Under the pieces are notes generated by a model that did not search any database, was not told where the DNA came from, and saw only the letters and a program-made list of their open reading frames with translations. The position numbers and the translations under genes were made by a program. A DNA stretch of 62,898 nt, counting the filler, from Aduncisulcus paluster (Eukaryota): NCBI GenBank assembly GCA_024181965.1. It is 9 parts of 9 records of this genome, joined end to end, with 100 filler letters (N's around TTAATTAATTAA, not from the genome) between each part and the next. Parts side by side here need not be neighbours in the genome. Positions count along the whole stretch, not along the records: positions 35,048 to 48,863 come from BQXS01000084.1; 8 more parts are not named here. One strand, given 5' to 3'. This document shows positions 13,794 through 61,053 of the stretch, in pieces (position 1 is the stretch's first letter; every line of letters starts with the position of its first letter).

Positions 13794-13893
13794 NNNNNNN
13801 NNNNNNNNNNNNNNNNNNNNNNNNNNNNNNNNNNNNNTTAATTAATTAANNNNNNNNNNNNNNNNNNNNNNNNNNNNNNNNNNNNNNNNNNNN
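13794..13893. other. artificial contig spacer; identical spacers at 20905-21004, 23851-23950, 34948-35047, 48864-48963, 52678-52777, 58580-58679, 60954-61053
   Basis: Exactly 100 nt: an N run with central TTAATTAATTAA, which gives stops in all six frames. Confidence 0.99.
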
Positions 13894-15535: not shown

Positions 15536-17600
15536 TTATTTCTTCTTTTTAGAGCTTTTGGAAGTTTTGGCATTATCATCATAGGTTTTCTTAACCTTTA
15601 GATAGACAGAACGACGTTGTTCGACGTCAGGGTCTTCAATAAACATTCTGTATAGAATCTTCTTTGTTCCTCGCTTTGACTTGAGCTTGCTTTTGGCTTC
15701 CTTAACCAATGGAATGGATTCCAAGAACTCAGCCTTAGTAATGGTTAAATAATGCATGAATCGCAAGTACATCCCATCATCTCTCACACTCAGATCTTCA
15801 TTGAAGTAGAACGAATGTGGAGCAATCTCTCGATCTGAGGGTTCAGAATCCCTGGCTTTCATGTCATCCTCTACGAGTTCTTTCCATCCATAGACTAACA
15901 TATCCTCTTCGTCGGGGGAGGAAGCTCTATCTATGAAAATAGTGCGATAGATCGTCTCCATATCATGTCCTTCAAGAGCCATACGAAGAATCTCTGGCTT
16001 TCTGCCGGTGGAAGGGTTCATTCCACGCGATTTGTTGTCTGCATCTTTCTTGGCACGAATCAGACAGTTCACACAGTATCCTCTCCTCAAAAGGATGGCT
16101 CTGGTGGTGCTATTATAAGACCATTTCTCAAACCGATGGAATAACTTGAGGAGATACTCCATATCAGTGTCGCCACGCTTGGGGAGTGCCAAGGGACACT
16201 TACAGGAGTACTTGAGCTCTTTAGCTTTGGAGAGAGTCACAACACCCGGCTTACACTTGTCCTTTATGGTCTTATAAACGCTNNNNNNNNNNNNNNNNNN
16301 NNCGAATCAGACAGTTCACACAGTATCCTCTCCTCAAAAGGATGGCTCTGGTGGTGCTATTATAAGACCATTTCTCAAACCGATGGAATAACTTGAGGAG
16401 ATACTCCATATCAGTGTCGCCACGCTTGGGGAGTGCCAAGGGACACTTACAGGAGTACTTGAGCTCTTTAGCTTTGGAGAGAGTCACAACACCCGGCTTA
16501 CACTTGTCCTTTATGGTCTTATAAACGCTGGATAATTGTGCATACCGACGAAACCAGTGTTTGGACGTGTCGACAGAGAACATCTTTCCTCCAACAGAGA
16601 TTTCGAGTTCTTTGGGGCATGAGCGTCTTTTACCAAGACTAGAAGTTGAGCAATGGGAGGACGAAGACGAAGAGGAGGAAGAAGAAGATACAGTTGATGA
16701 AGATTGATAGGATTCGGTAGACGAAGAACGAGAAGGAGTCGCTGAAGAGCTCTTTGAGGCAGAAGGAGTCTCCGTTTGGGCAGTACAACTACTAGACGAT
16801 GAGCACAGGGAAGGAGAAGAGCATTGGGCTGGAGGAAGTGCAACAGATTCGCGAGGAGATAAGGAGGAAGGCACCCAGTTGACGAATTGATATGGAACAT
16901 CACGGAAAGCACCGAATAAAGGTCTTTCCAATCGACAATCTCCCATGTCACTGCCTTGGGAACCAGCAGGAACATACTCTCGGCCATTGGACGATTGGAG
17001 GCCGGTATCACGAGAAGTATCCGATGGAAATCTTTCGGGACCAGCGCTAGCATCTCCTTGAGCCAAAGAATAGCCAAGATCGCCAGACAACGATTGTCCA
17101 GCAAAAGAAAAACAGCTATCGGGTGGAAAAGAAACAGATTGATTGGGATATACTCCAGAAAATTCTCCACTTGGGTACACCAGAGCTGGAGTTGACATTG
17201 AAAAGTCACCATTTGGACATCCAGGTACTGTAGTCGGCATTTCAACGCATGTTGAACTAGCCCCGAAAGAATCAACATGTATAGGCTCGGTAACATGTTC
17301 ATATGTTCGGCAATCGCTCAAACATGGTAAAATAAAGGGAGTAGCATCATGGAGGAAGACAGGAACAGAAGTGGATTCATAGCCGATCAAAGGGGGTATT
17401 CCACGTGGAGAATATTCTTGAGTTTGAAGATTGTGGCTCAATGAATTGGGTGAAGATGATAATGTTTGGGATTGGGACTCTTTAGATGAGGCAATAGGTT
17501 GAAAATCTAAAAATGAATCGGGACAAGAAGAATCCAATAAATTTCCAATATGATCGCACTCTTCGGTATTAGGAAACAAATGATTAAATATATCGCCCAT
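15536..17600 (-). CDS. hypothetical protein (Ser/Pro-rich N-terminus, Cys-containing basic C-terminal domain), split by a gap artefact
   Basis: ORFs 16272..17600 and 15536..16240 share an identical ~230-bp overlap across the N gap at 16283-16302. Confidence 0.65.
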
Positions 17601-20904: not shown

Positions 20905-21004
20905 NNNNNNNNNNNNNNNNNNNNNNNNNNNNNNNNNNNNNNNNNNNNTTAATTAATTAANNNNNNNNNNNNNNNNNNNNNNNNNNNNNNNNNNNNNNNN
21001 NNNN

Positions 21005-36359: not shown

Positions 36360-37283
36360 TGTACCGTCTGCCAACTCTATTTCAATGTCGGCCTCTTCTT
36401 TTTCAATACCAGCGACATCTTCTATCAATTCTTTCCTGATAATGGAGACATCTGATCCAGTATCCAAAATAAATGAAGCTCGAATGCCTTCACTTTTCTC
36501 AGGGTCTGTCAAAATTGTTAGAAAATACTTATGAGCCTGTTTACTGGTATAAGAAGCCTTTGAACCAGCTCGAACAACAGGACTAGATTTCTTAGCTGAG
36601 TTAGACGGGCAAAATCTTGTGATGTGACCCAGCTCGTGGCACTTTCTGCACTCAACATGAGAGAATTTTGAAGTTCTATCAGGAGCATGACTGTGACGTC
36701 TTTTACCGCCAGTAGGTGTCACTAACTTCACTTCCAATCCAAAAGAACTCGGATATTTCAGTACTTCATCCCTGATAGCGACCATATCTTCAATTTCACC
36801 GAAGGCCACTTTCATAACATGGGGAAGGTCATCTTTCTTTTCTGCCGTGTCAATTTCCGACTTTACACGATCACAAAGTCTTGGGATCTTCAAACCTTCA
36901 ATAAACATGTCAGCAATAACCTGTTTGTCCCCGAACGCTTCATTTGCAGCTACCTCCTCCTGAAAACGAGCAGTGTAGGTAACAAGGGCGGATTGAGATA
37001 GTTTATACAGCTTCAGCTTCTTTAATTCGTCGTAAAATCCTTGAGTGCTAGAAACAGAAAACTTTTTTGTCACCTTTGCTTTAAAGCTCTCAGGCGTCTC
37101 ATCCGGTGTACATCCAGTCGTCAAATAAAGACTCTGTAATACGAATGGATCAATTAAGGTTCTAAAGTCAGCATCGCCTCCCCTTGCGACATAAATCGCG
37201 TAATCTCGGTGAAACTTTAACCATGAGTTTCGATCGAACTTAGTAAGAAATGGAGGTTGTAGAAGAGCCATTGATCCTTCCAT
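36357..37283 (-). mobile_element. Ty3/gypsy-like element A: gag-protease, truncated
   Basis: CCHC knuckle CRKCHELGHITRFC; aspartic protease ILDTGSDVSII...IELADGT. Confidence 0.85.
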
Positions 37284-37300
37284 CGCGAGAGTATTAATAC

Positions 37301-37590
37301 TGTAATGCGTATGCAATTTACTATAATAAATGAACATCAGATTTGTGGTCTAAAAATAGATCACATCATATTTCAGACTTCTAAAGATGATAGAATTTTG
37401 GACAAAAACGTTAGAATGCCGGTACATCTTTATAAAGCGATTGCGAAATATAGACTTTTTATGATATGGAGACATGTTATAATGTCGGTCCAATCGAAAG
37501 GTGAAAAGTCTGGACTTAACCACCCAACATGCCTCGGTGGCTCACCTTTCCTTGTACTACTAGCTATAAGACACGTAGCAATATTCAACA
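37301..37590 (-). repeat. putative 5' LTR of element A
   Basis: Minus strand TGTTG...TTACA, ending 17 nt before the gag ATG. No second LTR present to confirm the outer edge. Confidence 0.5.
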
Positions 37591-37693
37591 GCACTCAAAT
37601 ATGTGAATCTGAGTCATTTGTCAAGGAAATATCAAAAAGGCTTGATCATCAAGCCTTGATGAACAGGAGCAAGAACGTAAAAAGGTACAAGAT

Positions 37694-39919
37694 GTGGCCT
37701 CAATAGATCTTACCACCCGCACGCCTACTTTTCTAGAGTACACGATCATAACACCCATTGAATCCATGAAATATGTTGGTCTGGGCCACAGTACAATCAA
37801 AAAGAGTGGAGACCGTCTCCGTGACGGTCGCAAAGACTTGTCAGAGGGTGATAATGACGATGATAATGATAATGACGATATGCATAGAAGAGATGAATTA
37901 ATCTTCGATATATTTAGTGAGATGCTGGATAGAAACCCTATGTATCATCATTGTACTCCTCTTTCCCCCCCATTGACATGCGGCATTAAACCTTCCAACA
38001 CCGCTCCTACTACTACAACTGCTACCATTAAGACGACTATTACTACTAGTGATACTAGAACTGCCGCCACTACGAGTAGTACTGCTGATACATGCGATAT
38101 GACAACGGTCTTCACCGCAGATATGAAGGCTCTCCATTCTGCGGCACCTCTATCTCTTGCTGGTACTCTGTCTTCCTCTTCTTCTTCTTCTTCTTCGTCT
38201 TCTTCTGCCTCTACTTTATCATCTTCTTCTTCCTCCTCCTCCATGCCAAATTATATTGATGAGATATCTTGGGGAAGAGCAACAAAAGGTGGGGTAAAGG
38301 AAAATACGATATGTTATGGCATGACGAGCGTCTGCCATGGGTAATTGTACACAATCTCGTCGGAATGTTCAAGAGGAAACCTATCAAGATGAGAAATGGG
38401 AAAACTAGAGCAGCCCCGACTAGTAGCAAAGGAAGACTAACCCAGAAAATGCTACTAAAGATACTTGATAAGCTGGACCACATGTACGAGGTTAAATTTA
38501 AACACGTCAAAACGAAAAACCCCCTTGCATCTGCTAAAACAGTGCTCGCCCTGAGAATGGGAACAATGTTACTCCAATGCAAAGACATGCCTTATAACAC
38601 TGATTGTGGATGTCACACTATCCCGAATGATCAAGGAGTAAGTTATCCAATACACTCACAACTACAGCACTCAATGTTGGGCAATCAATCAGAGATAGTC
38701 AAAGAGGGTTCAAAAATTACATGCCAACCAGTAACGTCAACTTCTATAGCATCAGCTTCAGCCTCAGCTCTAGCTGTAACTCCAGCTCAGGATTGTGCGC
38801 CTACTCTGTCCTCAGATCATGCTATTTCGTCAGCATCAGCATCAGAATCCAATTCATCATCACGGCTCCCGTCTTACTCACCCCAAGAGCTGGCAGATCC
38901 ATTCAAATCAATGAGTGAATTTAGCCATAATGAAGGAATGACTTTATCACAAGCGATTAAAGCAGTCCGGAAGAAGATAGTTGTAAGGAAATTAAGGCGT
39001 AAGAGGGTAAGAGTACCCCGGACACCTGATACTGTAGCGCGCTTATCAACAACATCCCTTGATATACGCTCTCCAACTTCTCCAACTTCTCCAACTTGTC
39101 CACAAGCTCAAAAAAAGAAGAAGTTAATGATAAGAAGAAACCAATAGGTTACTTCCCTGACAGCTCTAATCAGACAATACATGAGAACCACAGCGAACGT
39201 CATGGAATGTCTGGAATGAATGTTTCTGAACTCGAAATTCCTGCCTGCAGTGCTGTCGAGGGCGCCCCAAGACATGAAAATGACGTTCTCAAGGTCTCCT
39301 TGACATGAGCGCCAGACTGAATGTTATTGTTGATAAGGTGAAATTGCATAAAGCTAATCCATCTACAACTCTGTCACTTACAGAAGAAGAAGTGCTGGAT
39401 ATGGTAGCTGCTGACATCTACATCCCCATAGACTGCCAAGTTCCACCTAGTGTTGAACAATGGAAAGGATTTGGACTAACACTTTCAGAACGTGTAAAGA
39501 ATATCACACAATCAGTTGTCTCTCCACCTAGAACTATGCAATCATCAAGAGAGGCGACGACTAACTCGGAAACCCCACTGTCCCCGCCCCCTCGTGCCCC
39601 TTCTATCCTGTCCATTCCAGAAAGTCCGGAAAATCCACGCTTGATTGAATCAATGGGATCTAGCTCTGAACCAGCAGCGCCGCTGCATGAGCATGAGAAA
39701 TCCCATAAACCCCCCAATCCTACTCCAAATCATGTCAAAACATCACCTCATCCAACTACTGCGATGCACGGCAGACAGCTTAAGAACCATCGTCCTTCTC
39801 CCATAGGTCATAAGGATACTCCGGACCCACTTGAGATACAAGACAGTCCAATAGTGTCATTCTCACCTTTAGTGACGTCTATTCCATCTTCGTCTCCATC
39901 AGTTTCAAAACAAATTTAA
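37694..39919 (+). pseudogene. string of fragmented Ser/Thr/Pro-rich ORFs of unknown origin
   Basis: Consecutive same-strand ORFs (37694, 38269, 39096, 39305) separated by frameshifts or stops; coding-like GC. Confidence 0.4.
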
Positions 39920-40274
39920 ACCTAGTGACACTAGGGCACCTGTTTCAAAAGGTGATGTGATTAAGAAGGAATCGNNNNNNNNNNNNNNNNNNNNGCGCCG
40001 CTGCATGAGCATGAGAAATCCCATAAACCCCCCAATCCTACTCCAAATCATGTCAAAACATCACCTCATCCAACTACTGCGATGCACGGCAGACAGCTTA
40101 AGAACCATCGTCCTTCTCCCATAGGTCATAAGGATACTCCGGACCCACTTGAGATACAAGACAGTCCAATAGTGTCATTCTCACCTTTAGTGACGTCTAT
40201 TCCATCTTCGTCTCCATCAGTTTCAAAACAAATTTAAACCTAGTGACACTAGGGCACCTGTTTCAAAAGGTGAT

Positions 40275-41440
40275 GTGATTAAGAAGGAATCGTATGTAAA
40301 AAAAGAAACACTTAAGGCTCTTTCTGTATCTTCGGGTGGATTACCTACGCTGGATGTTTCTGTGTGGGGTTCAAAAGGGGATGATTTTCTTAATACTATT
40401 GCCCTTTTGGATACCGGTTGTTCTCATTCTGTGATTTCAGACTCTTTATTGGCTAGACTCCAAGAGACACAACATATCTTCACAAAGCCTGAATATGCTG
40501 AGATACGATTGGCATCAGGAAAGATAGAATCCAAAAAGTCTGTATTACTTACGCTTAAGATAGACCAAGCAGCTTTTAAAGCCCCTCTGACATTTACTGA
40601 GGAGTTTTTAGTTATTAATATGGAACCAGAAACGCAACACAATTTGATTCTGAGTTACACGATTATTAATGAATTGAAGCTTATGGATCTATTGGAATTG
40701 GACTCTAAAGAGCCTAAATATGATGAAGATGATGAACCTGAAATAGAAGAAGATGAAGAAGAAGACCACCTGAACGAAGGTACGCTATTTTGTGAAAGCC
40801 CACTTTTGAGACCGGAAATTCAGCCGATACTTGAGGGCCTCAAGTCACTTGAGGATTATTGAAGAAAAGGAAAAGGGGTTTGAGCTTGGGGAAGCCAGAG
40901 TGGAAGAATTTCATATTACTCTGGAGGACGAATCTAAAACAATCCGCATTCCCCCTCGCTGATTGTCCTATGCGTTGAGGAAACAGGTTCAAGAGATAAT
41001 TGCGGATCTACTTGAACAGGGAAAGATTATTGAATCTCATAGCTCTTTTTCCAGTCCGATTGTAATGGATAAAAAGAAAGAAGGATCATGGAGATTATGT
41101 TATTGGCCTTCTGAACTATTTTCGAGAGTTCATCCCGAATTATTCTTTGTTGACTTCACCTATTACGTCACTAATTGATAAAACAATTAGTTTTGAATGG
41201 ACTGAGGAATGCCAACAATCATTCGATAAGATCAAGACCTGGCTGAAAGATAGTATAATACTAGCATATCCTGATCCTGAAGCTACTTTTATTCTCAAAA
41301 CTGATGCTTCTGATGTTGCTGTTGGAGGCGTATTGTCACAAATAATTGAAGGAAAAGAGAGATTTATTTCTTTCTCTTTTCAGAAGAAACTGACGAAACA
41401 ACAACAAAGATGGACGACCGGAGATAAGGAGTCTTTTTCG
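40275..41440 (+). mobile_element. Ty3/gypsy-like element B relic: protease, deleted RT, RNase H fragment
   Basis: LLDTGCSHSVIS; SSFSSPIVM.KKKEGSWRLC; FEWTEECQQSFDKIK; LKTDASDVAVGGVLSQ; stops and internal deletion. Confidence 0.85.
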
Positions 41441-42156
41441 GCGCGAGAGCACAAAAATCACATAAAATCAAAAAGATTAAAATAAAGAACAAATTTCACA
41501 TCACGCAGTACGATAATTGTCAATCATATCTCTTTATAATAGTTTTTTTTTTCATTTCCCTTTCTTATTCTAAGGGTGTTGACCATTTTCACAACATTTT
41601 TCAAGTCCTTCATTAAGAAGACATATTATACAATATATTTCAAGATATTTCTTTCGTTAGGATATAAACAAAAACATAACAAATAATTAACAAAACAAAG
41701 CAAAAAAATGTACTACATTTGTAAAAAAATGACCGATTCATACATTATAGAAGTTTTTATCGTCGTTCCCTATAGATCTAATGATTTATATAGTTGTTGT
41801 CCGATAAATTCTGAAATGTGGCGTTTTCTTGTTTTTCATTAGAGGAAATATATGAAATATTATGAATTTTGAATTAAGAATATAATTATAAGAATTTTTT
41901 AAGTGTTTTATTAAAATTTATAATGAGTTTACTCGAAAAATTAAGGAAAAGTGGTCTTAAGTAAGGAGATGATAATAGAAAGGAAGTTTTTAGAGGAGTT
42001 TATGGTTTAATAACCTCTTATTGCTCTTTTCCTTGTAAACGGAGGAGCCGAGGAGGGAGTAGGAAGTAACTTTAAACAAAACGTTACAAAATCACTCGAA
42101 AGGGAATAATTCAAGAAGAGGGAGTTCATAACAAGAAGAAAACACCAATTTGGCTC

Positions 42157-42388
42157 TGTTATATTCTAATGAATATAATATCTGAAAACTAACAACCATG
42201 TTGTGTTAGCTCAATGGGAAAGGCGCCATGCTTTGACGCCCAAGGTTATGGGTTCAAACGCCACCATATTTTTGTACTATTCGTGACCGTTGAGTCTGTG
42301 GCATATGGGACATTGCCGGATTATAATGATAGAGATTAGATTTAATAAATTGGCTTACGATATAGAGTACATTGCTCATAAGACTACA
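42157..42388 (+). repeat. putative 5' LTR of element C, containing a tRNA-like A/B-box segment
   Basis: TGTTA...CTACA; AATAAA near 42344; directly followed by GTATTAATACT as in element A. Outer edge inferred. Confidence 0.5.
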
Positions 42389-42459
42389 GTATTAATACTT
42401 ATAGGATTATAGCTTGCTATAATACATCAAATTTTTCGTAACCTTTTTATTCTAAAATC

Positions 42460-43542
42460 ATGTTAGCGTTGGAAGTTAAAACACCCGTATTAGGCAAATT
42501 ATCGAAGGATAATTGGCTCAAGTTCACTTCAAAACTTAAGACTTATCACAACCGCGGAAAAGAGTCTTGGGCAAGTTTAATTGAACCAAAAAGATTAGAG
42601 TCACTTAAAGCTCTATATTTGGATAACTGCGACGCCTTAGATAAAAAGAAGCGAGAAATTAAGAAGTCCTATGCCGACATGGCAGAAAAATGATAGTTTA
42701 GACGAAATTGTTATCGAACTCACCAGAATTGTCGCGAAAACCGAAAAGCTACAATTCGATCAATTATCAAAATCATTTGGGTCATCACCAAAAGATTTTA
42801 TTGATTCGGTTAAAGATTTGACTATGAGTGAAGATTCATGGACGCTGCACAACTTCACAGACTATGCGACGGAATTCTATTCAAGGATAGAAGAGACGGC
42901 AGTAACACTTCCGGATATCAAAAAGCGATTCTTAAAGGGTCTAAGGCCTATCAGATTCGCTGAAAGAGTGTCACTGGATCCGGATGTTGACAAGGCTGAA
43001 AACGATCGCTCTGGGATTAAAACCATAATGAGAAAAGGAAATGTTGTTTGGGCTAACATTCTGGAGACATTCGAGGAAGCAAAAGCCCTCGGAATGATCA
43101 AGGACGCTGAAAAGAAAAGTTCTGAACCCGTACAAAAGACGAAATCTGAAAAGCCGTGTCACGGAAAGAAGAAACAGGAAGGAAAGAAGGAAGCTGAAGA
43201 AAAGAAACCCAGAAAGAAGACACCTTACTGTGCTATTTGCAAGATGAAGGACCTGGACCTCAAAATGCAGGAAAATCAAAACAGTAAACTAGTGAATATC
43301 TGAAATCGAAATACTTTACACAAATAGACTTGAAAAGCGGATACCATAATGTGGCTATTGTAACGGATATAGATTTAAAAACTTATAACCTAAGCAAGTT
43401 TATTAGAAATATTAACATCCAATGGTTCTATAAATAGAACTGAGAACCATTACACTATCGAAGAAGACAGCAAAGATTTAACATCATTCGCAGTACCATG
43501 GGGAGTATACAGATGGAATGGAGTTCTTTCCGGCACTCCAGA
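42460..43542 (+). mobile_element. Ty3/gypsy-like element C relic: frameshifted gag plus RT fragment
   Basis: Gag N-terminus PVLGKLSKDNWLKF...Y..RG...W.SLIEP resembles element A. RT piece KYFTQIDLKSGYHNVAI|EEDSKDLTSFAVPWGVYRW at 43309-43542. Confidence 0.8.
43359..43454. mobile_element. 96-bp solo-LTR-like insertion with 4-bp TSD (CTAT)
   Basis: TGTAA...TTACA termini; CTAT at 43355-43358 and 43455-43458; removing it restores the RT frame. Confidence 0.85.
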
Positions 43543-46500
43543 TGTAATACTGACTCTTATCCTAATTCCTTAACCTGATATCTTATATCGAAAAACCATA
43601 TATACATTTATTCTCCCGCTAGCAATTCTGTCCGCCGATGCTTGCTCATCTGGAGGAGCTTGTACTTCTTCCTTTGACTCTTCTTGTTCTTCCTTCTTGT
43701 CCTCCATTTCTTCTTCATTTCTGATCGTTTTGGCCTTATGTCTTCTTGGTGGCATGTAGATTTTGTGAGCGTTAGAATTAATGTGAACAGTCTTAAAGAG
43801 TATTCTTTAGAAAATTTGAATGATTTTTTTCTAAGATATGAAGCGTACGCCACGGATAAGACCGTGAAGAAACCAGCGTATTGGTTTAAGTTAATTGACG
43901 CTCCTTTACGTGTTGCTTTATTGGATGTGACCGGAACGAAGAAAGTTAGGACTGATGAGGAAGCTAAAAAGTTTAAGAAAGATCTTTTCTCACTGCAAGG
44001 CCCTCACCAGTGACGACCAGGTCGTCACCGGTCGTCACCTTCATCGAAATTTTGATTTGAGTCGTCACCGGTCGTCACCTTGCCCCATTTTCATCGTAAA
44101 ATCAAGTCACATTTTCATCTGATTTTCATCACATTTTGGACTTGATCCATGAAAATACTCATTCCTTGTGTTATCACATATCCTCCAAATCTTCTTTAAC
44201 ATCTGATCATGCATTTTTATTGGCAATGGGAATGTATAATTCTGAATAATAGTAAAATTAAAACAAAAAAAAACATATTTTACTGAAATTTGATGGTTTT
44301 CAAGGGAGGTCGTCACCGGTCGTCACCTTGGACATTTTTGGGTCGTCACTGGTGAGGGCCTTGTCTCACTGGATGCTCCTGCTACGTCCTATGATTTGCA
44401 CACCGAACTTTTTACAGTGGTTATGGAGAAGTCATTGTCAGTGACATCATTTATTAAGTATGTCACCAACTTTAAAAGAATTGTAAGTCAGGCACAGGAC
44501 ACTAAAACAACTGTAGCACCCGAAGAAAAGCCTAGACAAGACAACCCTTATAGGAAGCGAAAACGATGCCCGTATTGCCATAAATACGGACATGGAATTA
44601 GGGACTGCCGTAAGAAGAAGGAAGCAGATGCTAAGAAAGGACAAGTTAAAAGTATACGTACGATAGCTGAAACGAAAGTTCAAGATAGCTGCGAGGTGGA
44701 ATTAACATTAAAAGATAATCAATTACCAAAGGTAATGTGTCTCCTGGATACAGGAGCTTCGGTTTCATGTATTATGAAGGCGTTCTTGCAGCAAAACAAG
44801 AATATTTGGGATCAGCGAAATCAAGTCCCAGTTCCATACGTTTTGGCCGATGGAACTAAACGTAAATCATTGGGATCTATAACCTTAAATTTTAAATTAA
44901 GGAAGCCAGAAGGTAATTTATTGGAAGATATGGAGAATTTTATGATCATTGATGATCAGGCTGATACAGAGGATATGGTTATCCTTGGAGCAAGATGATC
45001 CATAAACATGCGCTTTTTGAACGTGAATCAAGTATGTGGGGCCATCAGAGAGATGAGGAAGAGGATGTGGAAATCATAGATGACGATGTTTTGAAGAAAG
45101 CTATCTTTGATGAAAAAAGTTTATCTTCGACGAAAAAAGCTTAAAAGTAGCACCTGAATTGAGGGAAGAAGTCGTGAGACTCCTAAAGGAGTACTGGTCA
45201 ACTGTTAACGTTGAACTGGCAGCGAAAGTACCTCCCCTAAAATTGACATTGGTAGATGAATCGAAGATCTCACATCAAAACCCACGTCCCATCCCACATA
45301 AAAGGAAGGAGTTTGTGGAAGAACACCTGGAGGAGCTTTTGAGCAAGGGGTTCATAAAGATTTCAGAGAGCCCAATTGCAGCTCCCATTCATGTAGTTCC
45401 AAAAGGAAAAGATGGCTGCCGCATGGTAATATACTATAGAGGTCTAAATAATAATCTTGTCGGAGATTCTTTTCCGTTGCCTCGAACGGATGACCTATTT
45501 CTAAATTTGCAAGGTCACCAGTATTATGCGGCATTAGACCTGAGAAATGGTTATTATAATGTTCCGATGGCAAAAGAAAGTAGCCATATTACTGCGTTTT
45601 GTACACTTACAGGCTTATATGAATGAACACGAGTTCCATTTAGGTTAAATACGGCGCCGGCACATTTTCAAAGAAGTATGGCGTTAGTATTGGGCGATTT
45701 AAGAACCAAAGGATGCTTAACGTACCTTGATGATGTGCTGATTGTGGGTAAAACACGCAAAGAATTTATTGAAAGATTATCTGAAGTTATAAAAAGGTTT
45801 AAAGATCATAACTTCATCTTTATGGATAAATCCATATTTGCTGCAAAGGAAATCCGATATTTGGGTTTCCAGTTTACAAAGGAAGGGAAGCAAATCACTG
45901 CTGAAAGACAGCAGGCGATTGATTCTATTGCTTTACCTGAAAACAAAAGGGCCTTGAGACGATTTTTGGGAATTATAAACTATGTAAAGGACTTTATTCC
46001 GAATTTAAGCGTTGAGGCTTCTCCTTTGTATGAGATGTTGAAAAATAAGACTTCAGCACTCCAGTGGTCACAAGAACAGAGAAAAGCATTCTTTCATAAA
46101 AGATTTGATTAATAATTCAACTTCCCTGTCCTTGTTTGACCCGGCGGCACCCTTAGCATTATTTACCGATGCATCATGTGTCGGTATCGGTGCTGTCCTG
46201 AAACAGCAAATTCAAGGCGTTTGGTATCCTGTACAGTATATTTCTAAGAAGTTTTCGGCTGTACAAAGACGTTGGTCCACGTTGGAACAAGAGGCCTATG
46301 GCATTGTTTATGCAGTAAGTACGCTCAGACAGTTTCTGTTAGACAAACATTTCGTCATTAATACGGATCATCGAAACTTACTGTATATGCAAAAGAATCT
46401 CATTAACGGGACTGAATCCTTTAGAAAATTTGGATAGACCTACAGAATTGGATTTGACTAGGTTTAAAGGAACCCCAACAAGCCGTGAAGCAAGGGATTA

Positions 46501-46891
46501 TGTATTGGAGTTGACGGATCAGTTAAAATCGAGGCACGAATTTGTTAGAAAACACTGGGAAGAGAAGGTTAGGAAAAAGGAAAAGGATCTGAAGGAAGGT
46601 ATTCCGGTCGAAAAGGGCGACTTTGCGTGGTTAAGTCCGCTAATGAAAGACAAGCGAAAAGAATCTCTGAAGTTTCGAGGGCCTGTGTTGATTAAGGAAA
46701 TTATCTCACCGTCATTAGCAAGGATAATGTACCTTAATAACAATTATTATGAAGACATGCCCATGTCGAGACTCAAAAGAGTGGAAGGAGAGGTTAACTT
46801 GCAAATTGCCACCGATATGGCAACTCGAGATCAAGATAAATATGAAGTTGAAGCAGTAATAGACTGTAGACGAGATGAAGAGGGAGATTGG
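43543..46891 (+). mobile_element. Ty3/gypsy-like element D (chromovirus-like), degenerate: gag-PR-RT-RH, integrase core deleted, chromodomain start
   Basis: CPYCHKYGHGIRDC; LLDTGAS; LDLRNGYY; YLDD at 45723-45734; FTDAS; TDHRNL; KFRGP (GPY/F-like); YEVEAVID. 5' edge TGTAATAC at 43543 is inferred. Confidence 0.88.
43996..44363. mobile_element. 368-bp MITE with perfect 23-bp TIRs and 8-bp TSD (hAT- or P-type)
   Basis: TIR CAAGGCCCTCACCAGTGACGACC; TSD TCTCACTG at 43988-43995 and 44364-44371; subterminal GGTCGTCACC repeats; excision restores gag (…DLFSL|DAPATS…). Confidence 0.95.
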
Positions 46892-48179
46892 CACAAAGCT
46901 ACTAGCTTCCATTAGTAATGGAAACCTCAAACCTTCTAGTGTCACAGCAATAGTAAATTTGTTAACGGTATATAACTTTTATTATTATTTTACCACAATT
47001 TATCAATTCTTAAAAGAATAATGGAAGAATTAGAGGAAACAGAGCTTGTTTTTCGCGAGGATCGAGCCCCATTTCTAGACTCAGCAACGGCAGAGAAATG
47101 GCGAGTTTTGTGGGAAGCTGGGGCAATCGGAAAACACATTAAAATGCGCCAAAACAAATTTACGTACCACCAAACGACAAGATGGGCGCCAGACGAGCTC
47201 GAAAGAGGGCTCACTAGATTACAATCTAAAACTACTCCAGAACAGATATTACGACACCAATAGACACCTTAAATATTCTTCTCAAGAAACTATAATAAGA
47301 CAAAAGCACAAAGCAAGGGTAGAAGAGCCCGGAAGAGAAGTCCATCGAAAGGCAATGGGAATCAAAAACAAAACAAACAAGATTAACGACTTTGAAGCTC
47401 AAATACACACTGGAACACAAGTAGCACAGTCACAGCTTGTATATAATATCGCGTAAGGGCACAAGAGCCCGGGAGGTACATGCAGCATCGCTGGTTTTCC
47501 TCCTTGAAAGAACAACAAGATTTACGCAGCATAAACAACGGTTATAAGATCGTAATATACCAAGCCTAATAATTTGGTATCAATTATAATTCCGAAAAGA
47601 ACATCTAGAACGAAAAAGGCGAAAATTGGACGAAAATAAATAGGCTACTACGGATCAGACATCTTACAAGCATATCGCCTCTACATCGCCCAGGAATGAT
47701 TCCAGGATCTGGATTACTGAATATAATAAAAGTATCGTAGCTGGCCCAGATCTAGGTGGTAATCTTTCTCACAAGCCAGGAAAGGAATTATAATGATTTT
47801 ATATGAAAATTTAAAATACTATTTTGATTATTATATTATAATCGGTTCTATTTCGGTTTTGAAACAGGTTTTCCAGTTTCACGGGATGGAACTAGGTTTT
47901 GTGCTTTTTTAGCTTTTGTCGAGAGCTAAGTTCGTCCAAATATATATTTTATTATTATGCCTACTAATGAAATTGAAAAATCGTCAGAAGAATATTCGAG
48001 CTTGTCCGCACAACAACAAACCGTCCCGCTCCAATTGGAACCATGTCACAGCCCAGCGGCACAGAAGAATCTCAGTTATCAGAGATACAAAAACTCCGAG
48101 CAGAACTTGCCTTACTCAGACAAGAAACACAGAGGAGAAACGAGAGGGAGAAGCGACGGGAGTGTTCCAGCCGAGGATG

Positions 48180-60335: not shown

Positions 60336-61053
60336 TTGAATAGAGATAGAATTTCTTATCTAAAAAATAATAAAAACAAGCAGAATAATGAATGAATCCG
60401 GTTAAAATATTTCTTAATATACATTTAATAAAAGATATGACATATAGTAAACATACAATTTGCTTGTACGACGAGAAAAAATGGAGGACTGAACAAGCAA
60501 CCCTTCAATAGATAAGATTGGAAAATTAAAAAAACACATATAAACGAGTTAAATGCTGGTAAATGCTAAAAACATGTTTTATTTTCATTTCCATGCCATG
60601 GTGTTTATTCTCGATATCTCAGGCTTTTGGAGACAATACCCTTTAATATTCTTCAATGCCTTTCTTCCCTTTTTTATTTCTGTCTTTTTAGTATCTCCCT
60701 TTCTCAAATGAATGCATCCGCTTCTCAGGCTTTTGGAGAACCCTCAGGACTGGATATACTTCCATTTCACGCGTTAAGAACATTTATGAACGATTTCAAT
60801 GCTATTCAATAACATGGATATATTTCCATTTCATTTCTATCCTTATCCTTGCCTTTCTGTTTCATTTTCACTTGCTTTTGCTTACAATCAAAAATATCAA
60901 GAACCCGGAATACGATGGTATACATATGTCTGTATACTGCTACGAATCTAATCNNNNNNNNNNNNNNNNNNNNNNNNNNNNNNNNNNNNNNNNNNNNTTA
61001 ATTAATTAANNNNNNNNNNNNNNNNNNNNNNNNNNNNNNNNNNNNNNNNNNNN

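Follow-up and report, generated by a model that had tools for sequence, protein, structure and literature searches.

Introduction

Primer choice is a defining trait of each lineage of long terminal repeat (LTR) retroelements, and three modes of priming reverse transcription are established: from the 3' end of a tRNA, from a half tRNA, and from the element's own RNA in cis. Here we analyse a short perfect palindrome that is shared, letter for letter, by two otherwise diverged LTR-retrotransposon fragments (element A and fragment C1) from the free-living Giardia relative Aduncisulcus paluster, and that lies ahead of gag, where a primer-binding site (PBS) would be expected. The fragments come from a 62,898-nt stretch of DNA, hereafter the window, with a G+C content of 38%; the published value for this free-living fornicate is 39.1%, in a draft assembly with an N50 of 4.6 kb (PMC9933649). 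Eight linkers (each 44 N, TTAATTAATTAA and 44 N, at 13794-13893, 20905-21004, 23851-23950, 34948-35047, 48864-48963, 52678-52777, 58580-58679 and 60954-61053) split the window into nine segments; because it consists of nine joined contigs, two genes with a linker between them are not necessarily adjacent in the genome, and the finding lies in a single segment (35048-48863, 13,816 nt).

Several described systems come close. Tf1 and sushi, like the elements described here, are Ty3/gypsy-type elements that lack a site for the tRNA CCA end beside the 5' LTR, and priming by their own RNA has been proposed; the Tf1 site, however, is complementary in cis to the opening bases of the Tf1 transcript, whereas the present palindrome is complementary only to itself. 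The Skipper elements (dictyostelid chromoviruses) are likewise protist Ty3/gypsy elements with no TGG and no identified primer, and differ in carrying a polypyrimidine stretch after the left LTR, where we find an AT-rich perfect palindrome (for Skipper, PMC5006619). In half-tRNA priming, used by copia, Ty5 and the plant Osser and Bianca lineages, the site also lacks TGG, because the primer is not the 3' end of a tRNA; PBS type is reported to be lineage-specific in plants (PMC6317226). Non-tRNA priming is not rare among LTR elements, and a match between an AU-rich palindrome and an arm of a nuclear tRNA is unlikely. Dimerisation sites such as the HIV-1 DIS, Ty1 PAL1 and PAL2, and Ty3 PAL6 resemble the present motif in being short, self-complementary and close to both the 5' end of the genomic RNA and the primer site (PMC11381356). 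These sites are about 6 nt long, often GC-rich, exposed in loops and distinct from the primer site, whereas the palindrome here measures 12 nt, has no predicted hairpin and appears to fill the primer-site slot itself.

A perfect palindrome in the primer slot common to diverged families is not described, judging by titles and the beginnings of abstracts, in the literature searched, a search that had Repbase and GyDB outside it; the 12-mer and the 13-mer are absent from the same literature, and the 10-mer turns up in 17 papers, of which the 10 listed have titles on unrelated subjects. Such a palindrome would represent either a fourth mode of priming or an unusually placed dimer linkage with the primer site elsewhere. 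'LTR retrotransposon' and fornicate terms are not paired among the literature matches listed, and the analysis offers an initial view of LTR elements from free-living fornicates. The evidence consists of two broken copies, and its present value is that of a sharply testable lead.

An identical palindrome ahead of two diverged gag genes

The exact 15-mer TACAGTATTAATACT occurs twice in the window, at 37290-37304 (minus strand) in element A and at 42385-42399 (plus strand) in fragment C1, just where the initial annotation had reported it and nowhere else. A search allowing up to two mismatches returned three matches against 0.05 expected, the third being the palindrome's overlap with itself, and none of 100 shuffles produced three. 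The annotated perfect self-complementarity is real, but its length is 12 nt rather than 10: the core AGTATTAATACT spans 37290-37301 in A and 42388-42399 in C1 (its only exact copies in the window), and a 12-nt palindrome therefore takes in the A of the presumed LTR-terminal CA. The chance of a perfect 12-nt palindrome at a given site is 1 in 4096; this one is AT-rich, with two G/C pairs per half. TACA, typical of an LTR 3' tip, stands before the motif, and gag follows the motif in both fragments, as had been claimed, with the ATG 6 nt downstream in A and 60 nt downstream in C1; from CA to ATG, element A has only 17 nt. The letters after CA, GTATTAATACT, are not pyrimidine-rich, so that the motif is not of the Skipper polypyrimidine type.

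The gag genes behind the two copies are related at the protein level only (35.6% identity over 45 residues, E 0.001), in line with the earlier description. That description had also called the DNA of the two elements unalignable, which is correct outside a single block of 36-38 nt (81.6% identity, E 3.7e-4 in a restricted, word-7 BLAST search). Besides the 15-mer this block includes a second island, TA[T/G]AGTA[A/C]ATTGC, with 11 of 13 positions identical, found at 37313-37325 in A (TATAGTAAATTGC, minus strand, 8 nt before the 15-mer) and at 42363-42375 in C1 (TAGAGTACATTGC, plus strand, 9 nt before it); the spacer of 8-9 nt has diverged. That two conserved islands flank a diverged spacer argues for selection on two motifs and not for a recent exchange or conversion patch, and from its sequence the block looks like one under selection.

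A lack of function, with the identity due to chance or to a patch swapped between families by recombination, accordingly seems very improbable. Only two copies are present, in degenerate or truncated fragments 5 kb apart in one contig, as such an origin would allow; but shuffled sequences never give as many matches, both copies stand at the homologous place before gag, the islands are split by the diverged spacer, and the carriers differ in kind, A belonging to a family of some 20-45 copies and C1 being an old single-copy relic.

A candidate degenerate third copy of the motif at 47712 was rejected, as it fell outside the top 15 gapped matches and was without significant similarity. Two other symmetrical sequences were seen near the motif. 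One, a second hairpin or near-palindrome (ATTATAGC-TT-GCTATAAT, 42406-42423), is confined to C1 and lies 7 nt 3' of the motif, and a near-perfect inverted repeat with the core AAGGCTTGAT C ATCAAGCCTT lies at 37632-37662, about 330-360 nt upstream of A's motif.

No canonical primer site nearby

Neither fragment has a canonical primer site for a tRNA 3' end close to the motif, as the initial annotation had held: TGG is absent within 18 nt after CA in A and within 81 nt in C1. Its first occurrence is at +19 in A, where it is part of the start codon's ATGG, and at +82 in C1. The 17-nt leader of A leaves no room for another primer site. Nor is there, in about 600 nt upstream, a complement in cis of at least 7 nt to the 26 nt that follow TAC; the best predicted cis duplexes (-12.5 and -9.1 kcal/mol) are weak and lie at unrelated distances, and cis self-priming of the Tf1/sushi type is not apparent from the sequence. 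Rfam returned seven weak matches on 36000-48600, all below the gathering scores and with no tRNA among them. One stretch just upstream of C1 (42195-42275, then TTTTT) looks like a tRNA by eye and was discarded, being supported by neither ARAGORN nor Rfam.

Any explanation of the motif must cover its two-fold symmetry, its exact identity across deep divergence, and its place ahead of gag in a leader that, in A, holds no other primer site.

Pairing between RNAs

The homoduplex predicted for the 12-mer as RNA has -11.4 kcal/mol. Within the leader context, dimers are predicted to be favoured over two monomers by about 12 kcal/mol (-24.4 against 2 x -6.1 kcal/mol for the leader of A, -31.4 against 2 x -9.6 kcal/mol for that of C1). 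The leaders thus carry, in a perfect 12-nt palindrome, the self-complementary 5' sequence expected of a dimerisation site. A conserved hairpin presenting the motif was not found: single folds are no better than those of shuffles (z-scores -0.17 to 0.71), and the consensus fold of the two leaders reaches only -0.35 kcal/mol, so that a kissing loop is not indicated.

These predictions raise the possibility that the palindrome is a dimerisation or packaging signal and nothing more, with reverse transcription primed at another place, such as within gag, which is the case in Ty1. We regard this as somewhat unlikely. A perfect palindrome of 12 nt, a 1 in 4096 event, and the predicted stability of homoduplex and leader dimers are what it would lead one to expect; short 5' palindromes are an accepted paradigm among retroelements (PMC11381356; PMC6844567), and since one mutation in a palindrome loses two pairs, such a role could freeze the sequence. 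Known sites, however, are mostly GC-rich 6-mers in hairpin loops, in contrast to the leaders here, which lack a predicted conserved hairpin, and dimerisation alone needs any palindrome, so that identity letter for letter across such divergence would be unexpected. Moreover, no alternative primer site was found: the sole TGG-containing word common to both elements, TGGAAG, agrees over 6 nt only and falls at non-homologous codons.

We tentatively favour a reading, possible rather than probable, in which the conserved block sits in the PBS slot and works by RNA-RNA pairing. The 15-mer and its upstream island would form a selected cis-acting block in the leader of A. paluster Ty3/gypsy-type retrotransposons, filling the slot of the U5 end and the PBS, and the palindrome would most likely act as RNA, as the annealing site where minus-strand DNA synthesis starts. 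The primer would be something other than the CCA end of a tRNA, which could be the genomic RNA of a partner, a small RNA of the host or some internal part of a tRNA, and the self-complementarity would also let two genomic RNAs pair at the palindrome. We infer that the LTR ends at the CA, that priming occurs at this site and that the primer is of one of these kinds. Across diverged families of LTR elements, the PBS and the LTR tips are typically the sole non-coding letters conserved, and the identity of the motif, in spite of gag proteins only about 36% identical and otherwise unalignable DNA, counts in favour of a role in the primer slot.

Several points weigh against this role. A host primer would not explain a perfect palindrome, and no primer was found: the only tRNA in the window, tRNA-Leu(AAG), has no complementary word of at least 6 nt. 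The motif is known from two copies only, both in dead fragments, and no palindrome was found upstream of the gag of the neighbouring element D, whose 5' end may be truncated. No LTR pair for A or C1 was detected in the window by direct-repeat search, self-BLAST, word-7 BLAST or Smith-Waterman comparison with shuffles, and neither a polypurine tract nor a target-site duplication was found there for either fragment, so that the LTR edge is an assumption. One candidate for a short LTR, TGTAC...TACA, of 126 and 116 nt is weak, as TGTAC occurs four times upstream of A; with the known block excluded, the score of the remainder of the two candidate segments was reached by 54 of 500 shuffles and is not significant. 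The two TG...CA LTRs and target-site duplication of a Ty3/gypsy element are thus not in evidence for A and C1, which are 5' fragments whose 3' LTR may be lost.

A special case of priming in the PBS slot is self-priming in trans, in which dimerisation and priming would be served by the palindrome as one interaction. Two co-packaged genomic RNAs would pair through the 12-mer; the element's RNase H would cut one strand after ...AAUAC, as the Tf1 reverse transcriptase (RT) cuts its own RNA duplex; and the 5' piece of one RNA would then prime the minus strand on the other, exactly at the LTR edge. We consider this scheme quite improbable, and a plain dimerisation signal accounts for these data roughly equally well. 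If it were true, a site common to several families would permit plus-strand transfer between elements and so yield LTR-swapped chimeras, of which the contig joining 37301 to 47721, described below, could be an example.

The presumed LTR edge

The region upstream of A's motif (37305-37700, minus strand), the presumed 5' LTR, was examined by contig depth. Summed depth in the bin 37263-37683 is 20.8k, falling in the next bin to 1.2k, the approximate baseline, so that part of the sequence upstream of the motif is repeated in the genome; multi-copy sequence at this place is as an LTR would be. Run X2, guessed to be RNA, has no contig over 37263-37683 and carries no evidence on expression. Over element A as a whole, summed depth is 20,000-55,000 compared with about 1,200 for unique sequence, indicating a family of very roughly 20-45 copies, given that depths summed over contigs are a crude measure of copy number.

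The palindrome might instead be a signal in DNA (a core promoter, an initiator, or a site for a dimeric protein) at the U3/R border of an LTR that runs into gag, as in Ty1. If it were read by the host's transcription machinery, its two-fold symmetry and its identity across families would both be explained, palindromic DNA being typical of dimeric DNA-binding proteins, and the upstream island starts with TATAG 24-27 nt before the palindrome, a spacing like that from TATA box to start. The summed depth also climbs toward the 5' part of gag, to 33k and then 55k, as it should if that part belonged to the LTR, and the A-like part of one contig begins exactly at the palindrome. We nevertheless hold such a signal to be unlikely: the 12-mer occurs nowhere else in the window and is thus no general host promoter word, TATAG is weak as a TATA box, the motif-to-ATG distance varies tenfold (6 against 60 nt), and depths summed over contigs are a poor measure.

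In the contig just mentioned, whose depth is single-copy, the palindrome's outer edge (37301) meets position 47721 of the opposite strand; the shorter side is 34 nt (47688-47721, plus strand) and no letters are shared at the joint. Read plainly, it runs from sequence like 47688-47721 into the palindrome, CTCGCG and an A-like gag start, while in the window 47721 continues otherwise. The joint may mark where LTR and leader meet in a paralogue, or it may be an inversion breakpoint or an artefact; a paralogue is plausible in view of the depth of 46100-47787, about 1.6-1.8 times baseline. Its position agrees with a structural boundary at the palindrome's outer edge, and if the 47xxx sequence were an LTR end, the contig would be direct evidence that the palindrome abuts the 5' LTR and does not follow another copy of the same LTR. 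The 47xxx region does not significantly resemble what lies upstream of A, of C1 or of element D.

Classification and wider relatives

Searching 1.84 billion proteins with gag A gave 47 representative relatives at E <= 1e-3, several of them polyproteins of 1283-1350 residues. One of these, P0023, is similar to gag A at E 3.5e-10 and has Ty3 Gag-Pol as its best solved match (E 4e-83), with the integrase after the RT, which places the gag A family among the Ty3/gypsy-type (Metaviridae) elements. A and C1 themselves carry no RT, and the pol order is read from full-length gag A relatives and from the neighbouring element D. The Ty3/gypsy gag layout of a CCHC knuckle followed by an aspartic protease is present in A, where the knuckle CRKCHELGHITRFC and LDTGSD, the start of the aspartic protease, lie in one open frame; C1 retains only a decayed knuckle. 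A partial hypothetical protein of A. paluster (124 residues) is 98% identical to gag A.

Wider scans of public DNA confirmed no relatives. With the gag alignment, 332 stretches in metagenome_contigs were picked up and none was confirmed; a gag scan of viral_contigs gave 13 stretches, again with none confirmed as a relative. The DNA pattern ATTGC, a spacer of 7-11 nt and the 15-mer was found at 13 loci in metagenome_contigs, none with gag or pol (best E 0.029), so that all were set aside as chance matches. A pol-alignment scan of viral_contigs returned 66 loci: 62 resemble 7-10 kb records of pararetrovirus type, judged by size and layout, and four are gypsy-like (L014-L017) without this gag N-terminus. 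Among 49 proteins compared, the motif is translated only in the window's own P0004.

P0004 is encoded at 37337-36360 (minus strand; 326 residues) and uses an upstream ATG, so that the leader and the palindrome are translated (YSINT). Its upstream start is probably a mis-annotation, since relatives begin near MALLQPPFL or its equivalent. Two further observations concern proteins of this group. The C-termini of P0023, P0027, P0032 and P0034, together with a remnant in element D near 46800-46915, look chromodomain-like by eye, and P0005, a database protein of 1434 residues from outside the window, contains 26 tandem repeats of one CCHC-knuckle unit and matches the gag knuckle.

The carriers and their neighbours

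Element A occupies 36360-37283 on the minus strand as an open frame of 308 codons (gag, CCHC knuckle and the start of the protease) with its ATG at 37283; it breaks off near 36362, a point past which the contigs from other copies differ from the window. The initial annotation had treated 'element C' as a single LTR element. A leader and gag fragment with the motif is indeed present, but the region as a whole is a mosaic of several elements, and A and C1 are accordingly both 5' fragments without pol. C1 consists of leader and gag alone (42460-43303, plus strand, ATG at 42460), is single-copy and ends at 43303; its gag is degenerate, with stops, a frameshift and the decayed knuckle. Joined to it, at 43304-43590 (plus strand), is an RT fragment of a different, high-copy family (depth 18k, loose ends at 43304-43454).

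Element D follows at 43738-47000 (plus strand), degenerate, with its own gag N-terminus, CCHC knuckle, protease, RT, RNase H and the C-terminal part of an integrase; its enzymes, from protease to integrase, span 44366 to about 47000, separate from C1, and its RT is most similar to that of Ty3 (E 7.5e-19). Within its gag lies a small element of about 370 bp (43996-44363, no strand assigned) resembling a miniature inverted-repeat transposable element, bounded by perfect terminal inverted repeats of 23 nt and containing GGTCGTCACC repeats inside; one contig represents another copy of the flanks without the 370-bp insertion (joint 43987->44364). Element B (40194-41485, plus strand) is what remains of the protease and RNase H of yet another family, with the gag relative P0033; neither a gag N-terminus nor the motif is present in it.

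Elsewhere in the window, gaps of 20 N at 16283, 25822, 28904, 31084, 39975 and 51031 are each flanked by a repeat of about 210-310 nt that is 99-100% identical (99% at 31084); these repeats are most likely scaffolding artefacts of the assembler and not real tandem duplications. Finally, two copies of a gene family, at 49698-50798 and 58635-60359 (minus strand), lie in different segments and are 86% identical over about 1.3 kb of DNA; their product begins MS(C)SSTDA(I/V)IQTVEP.

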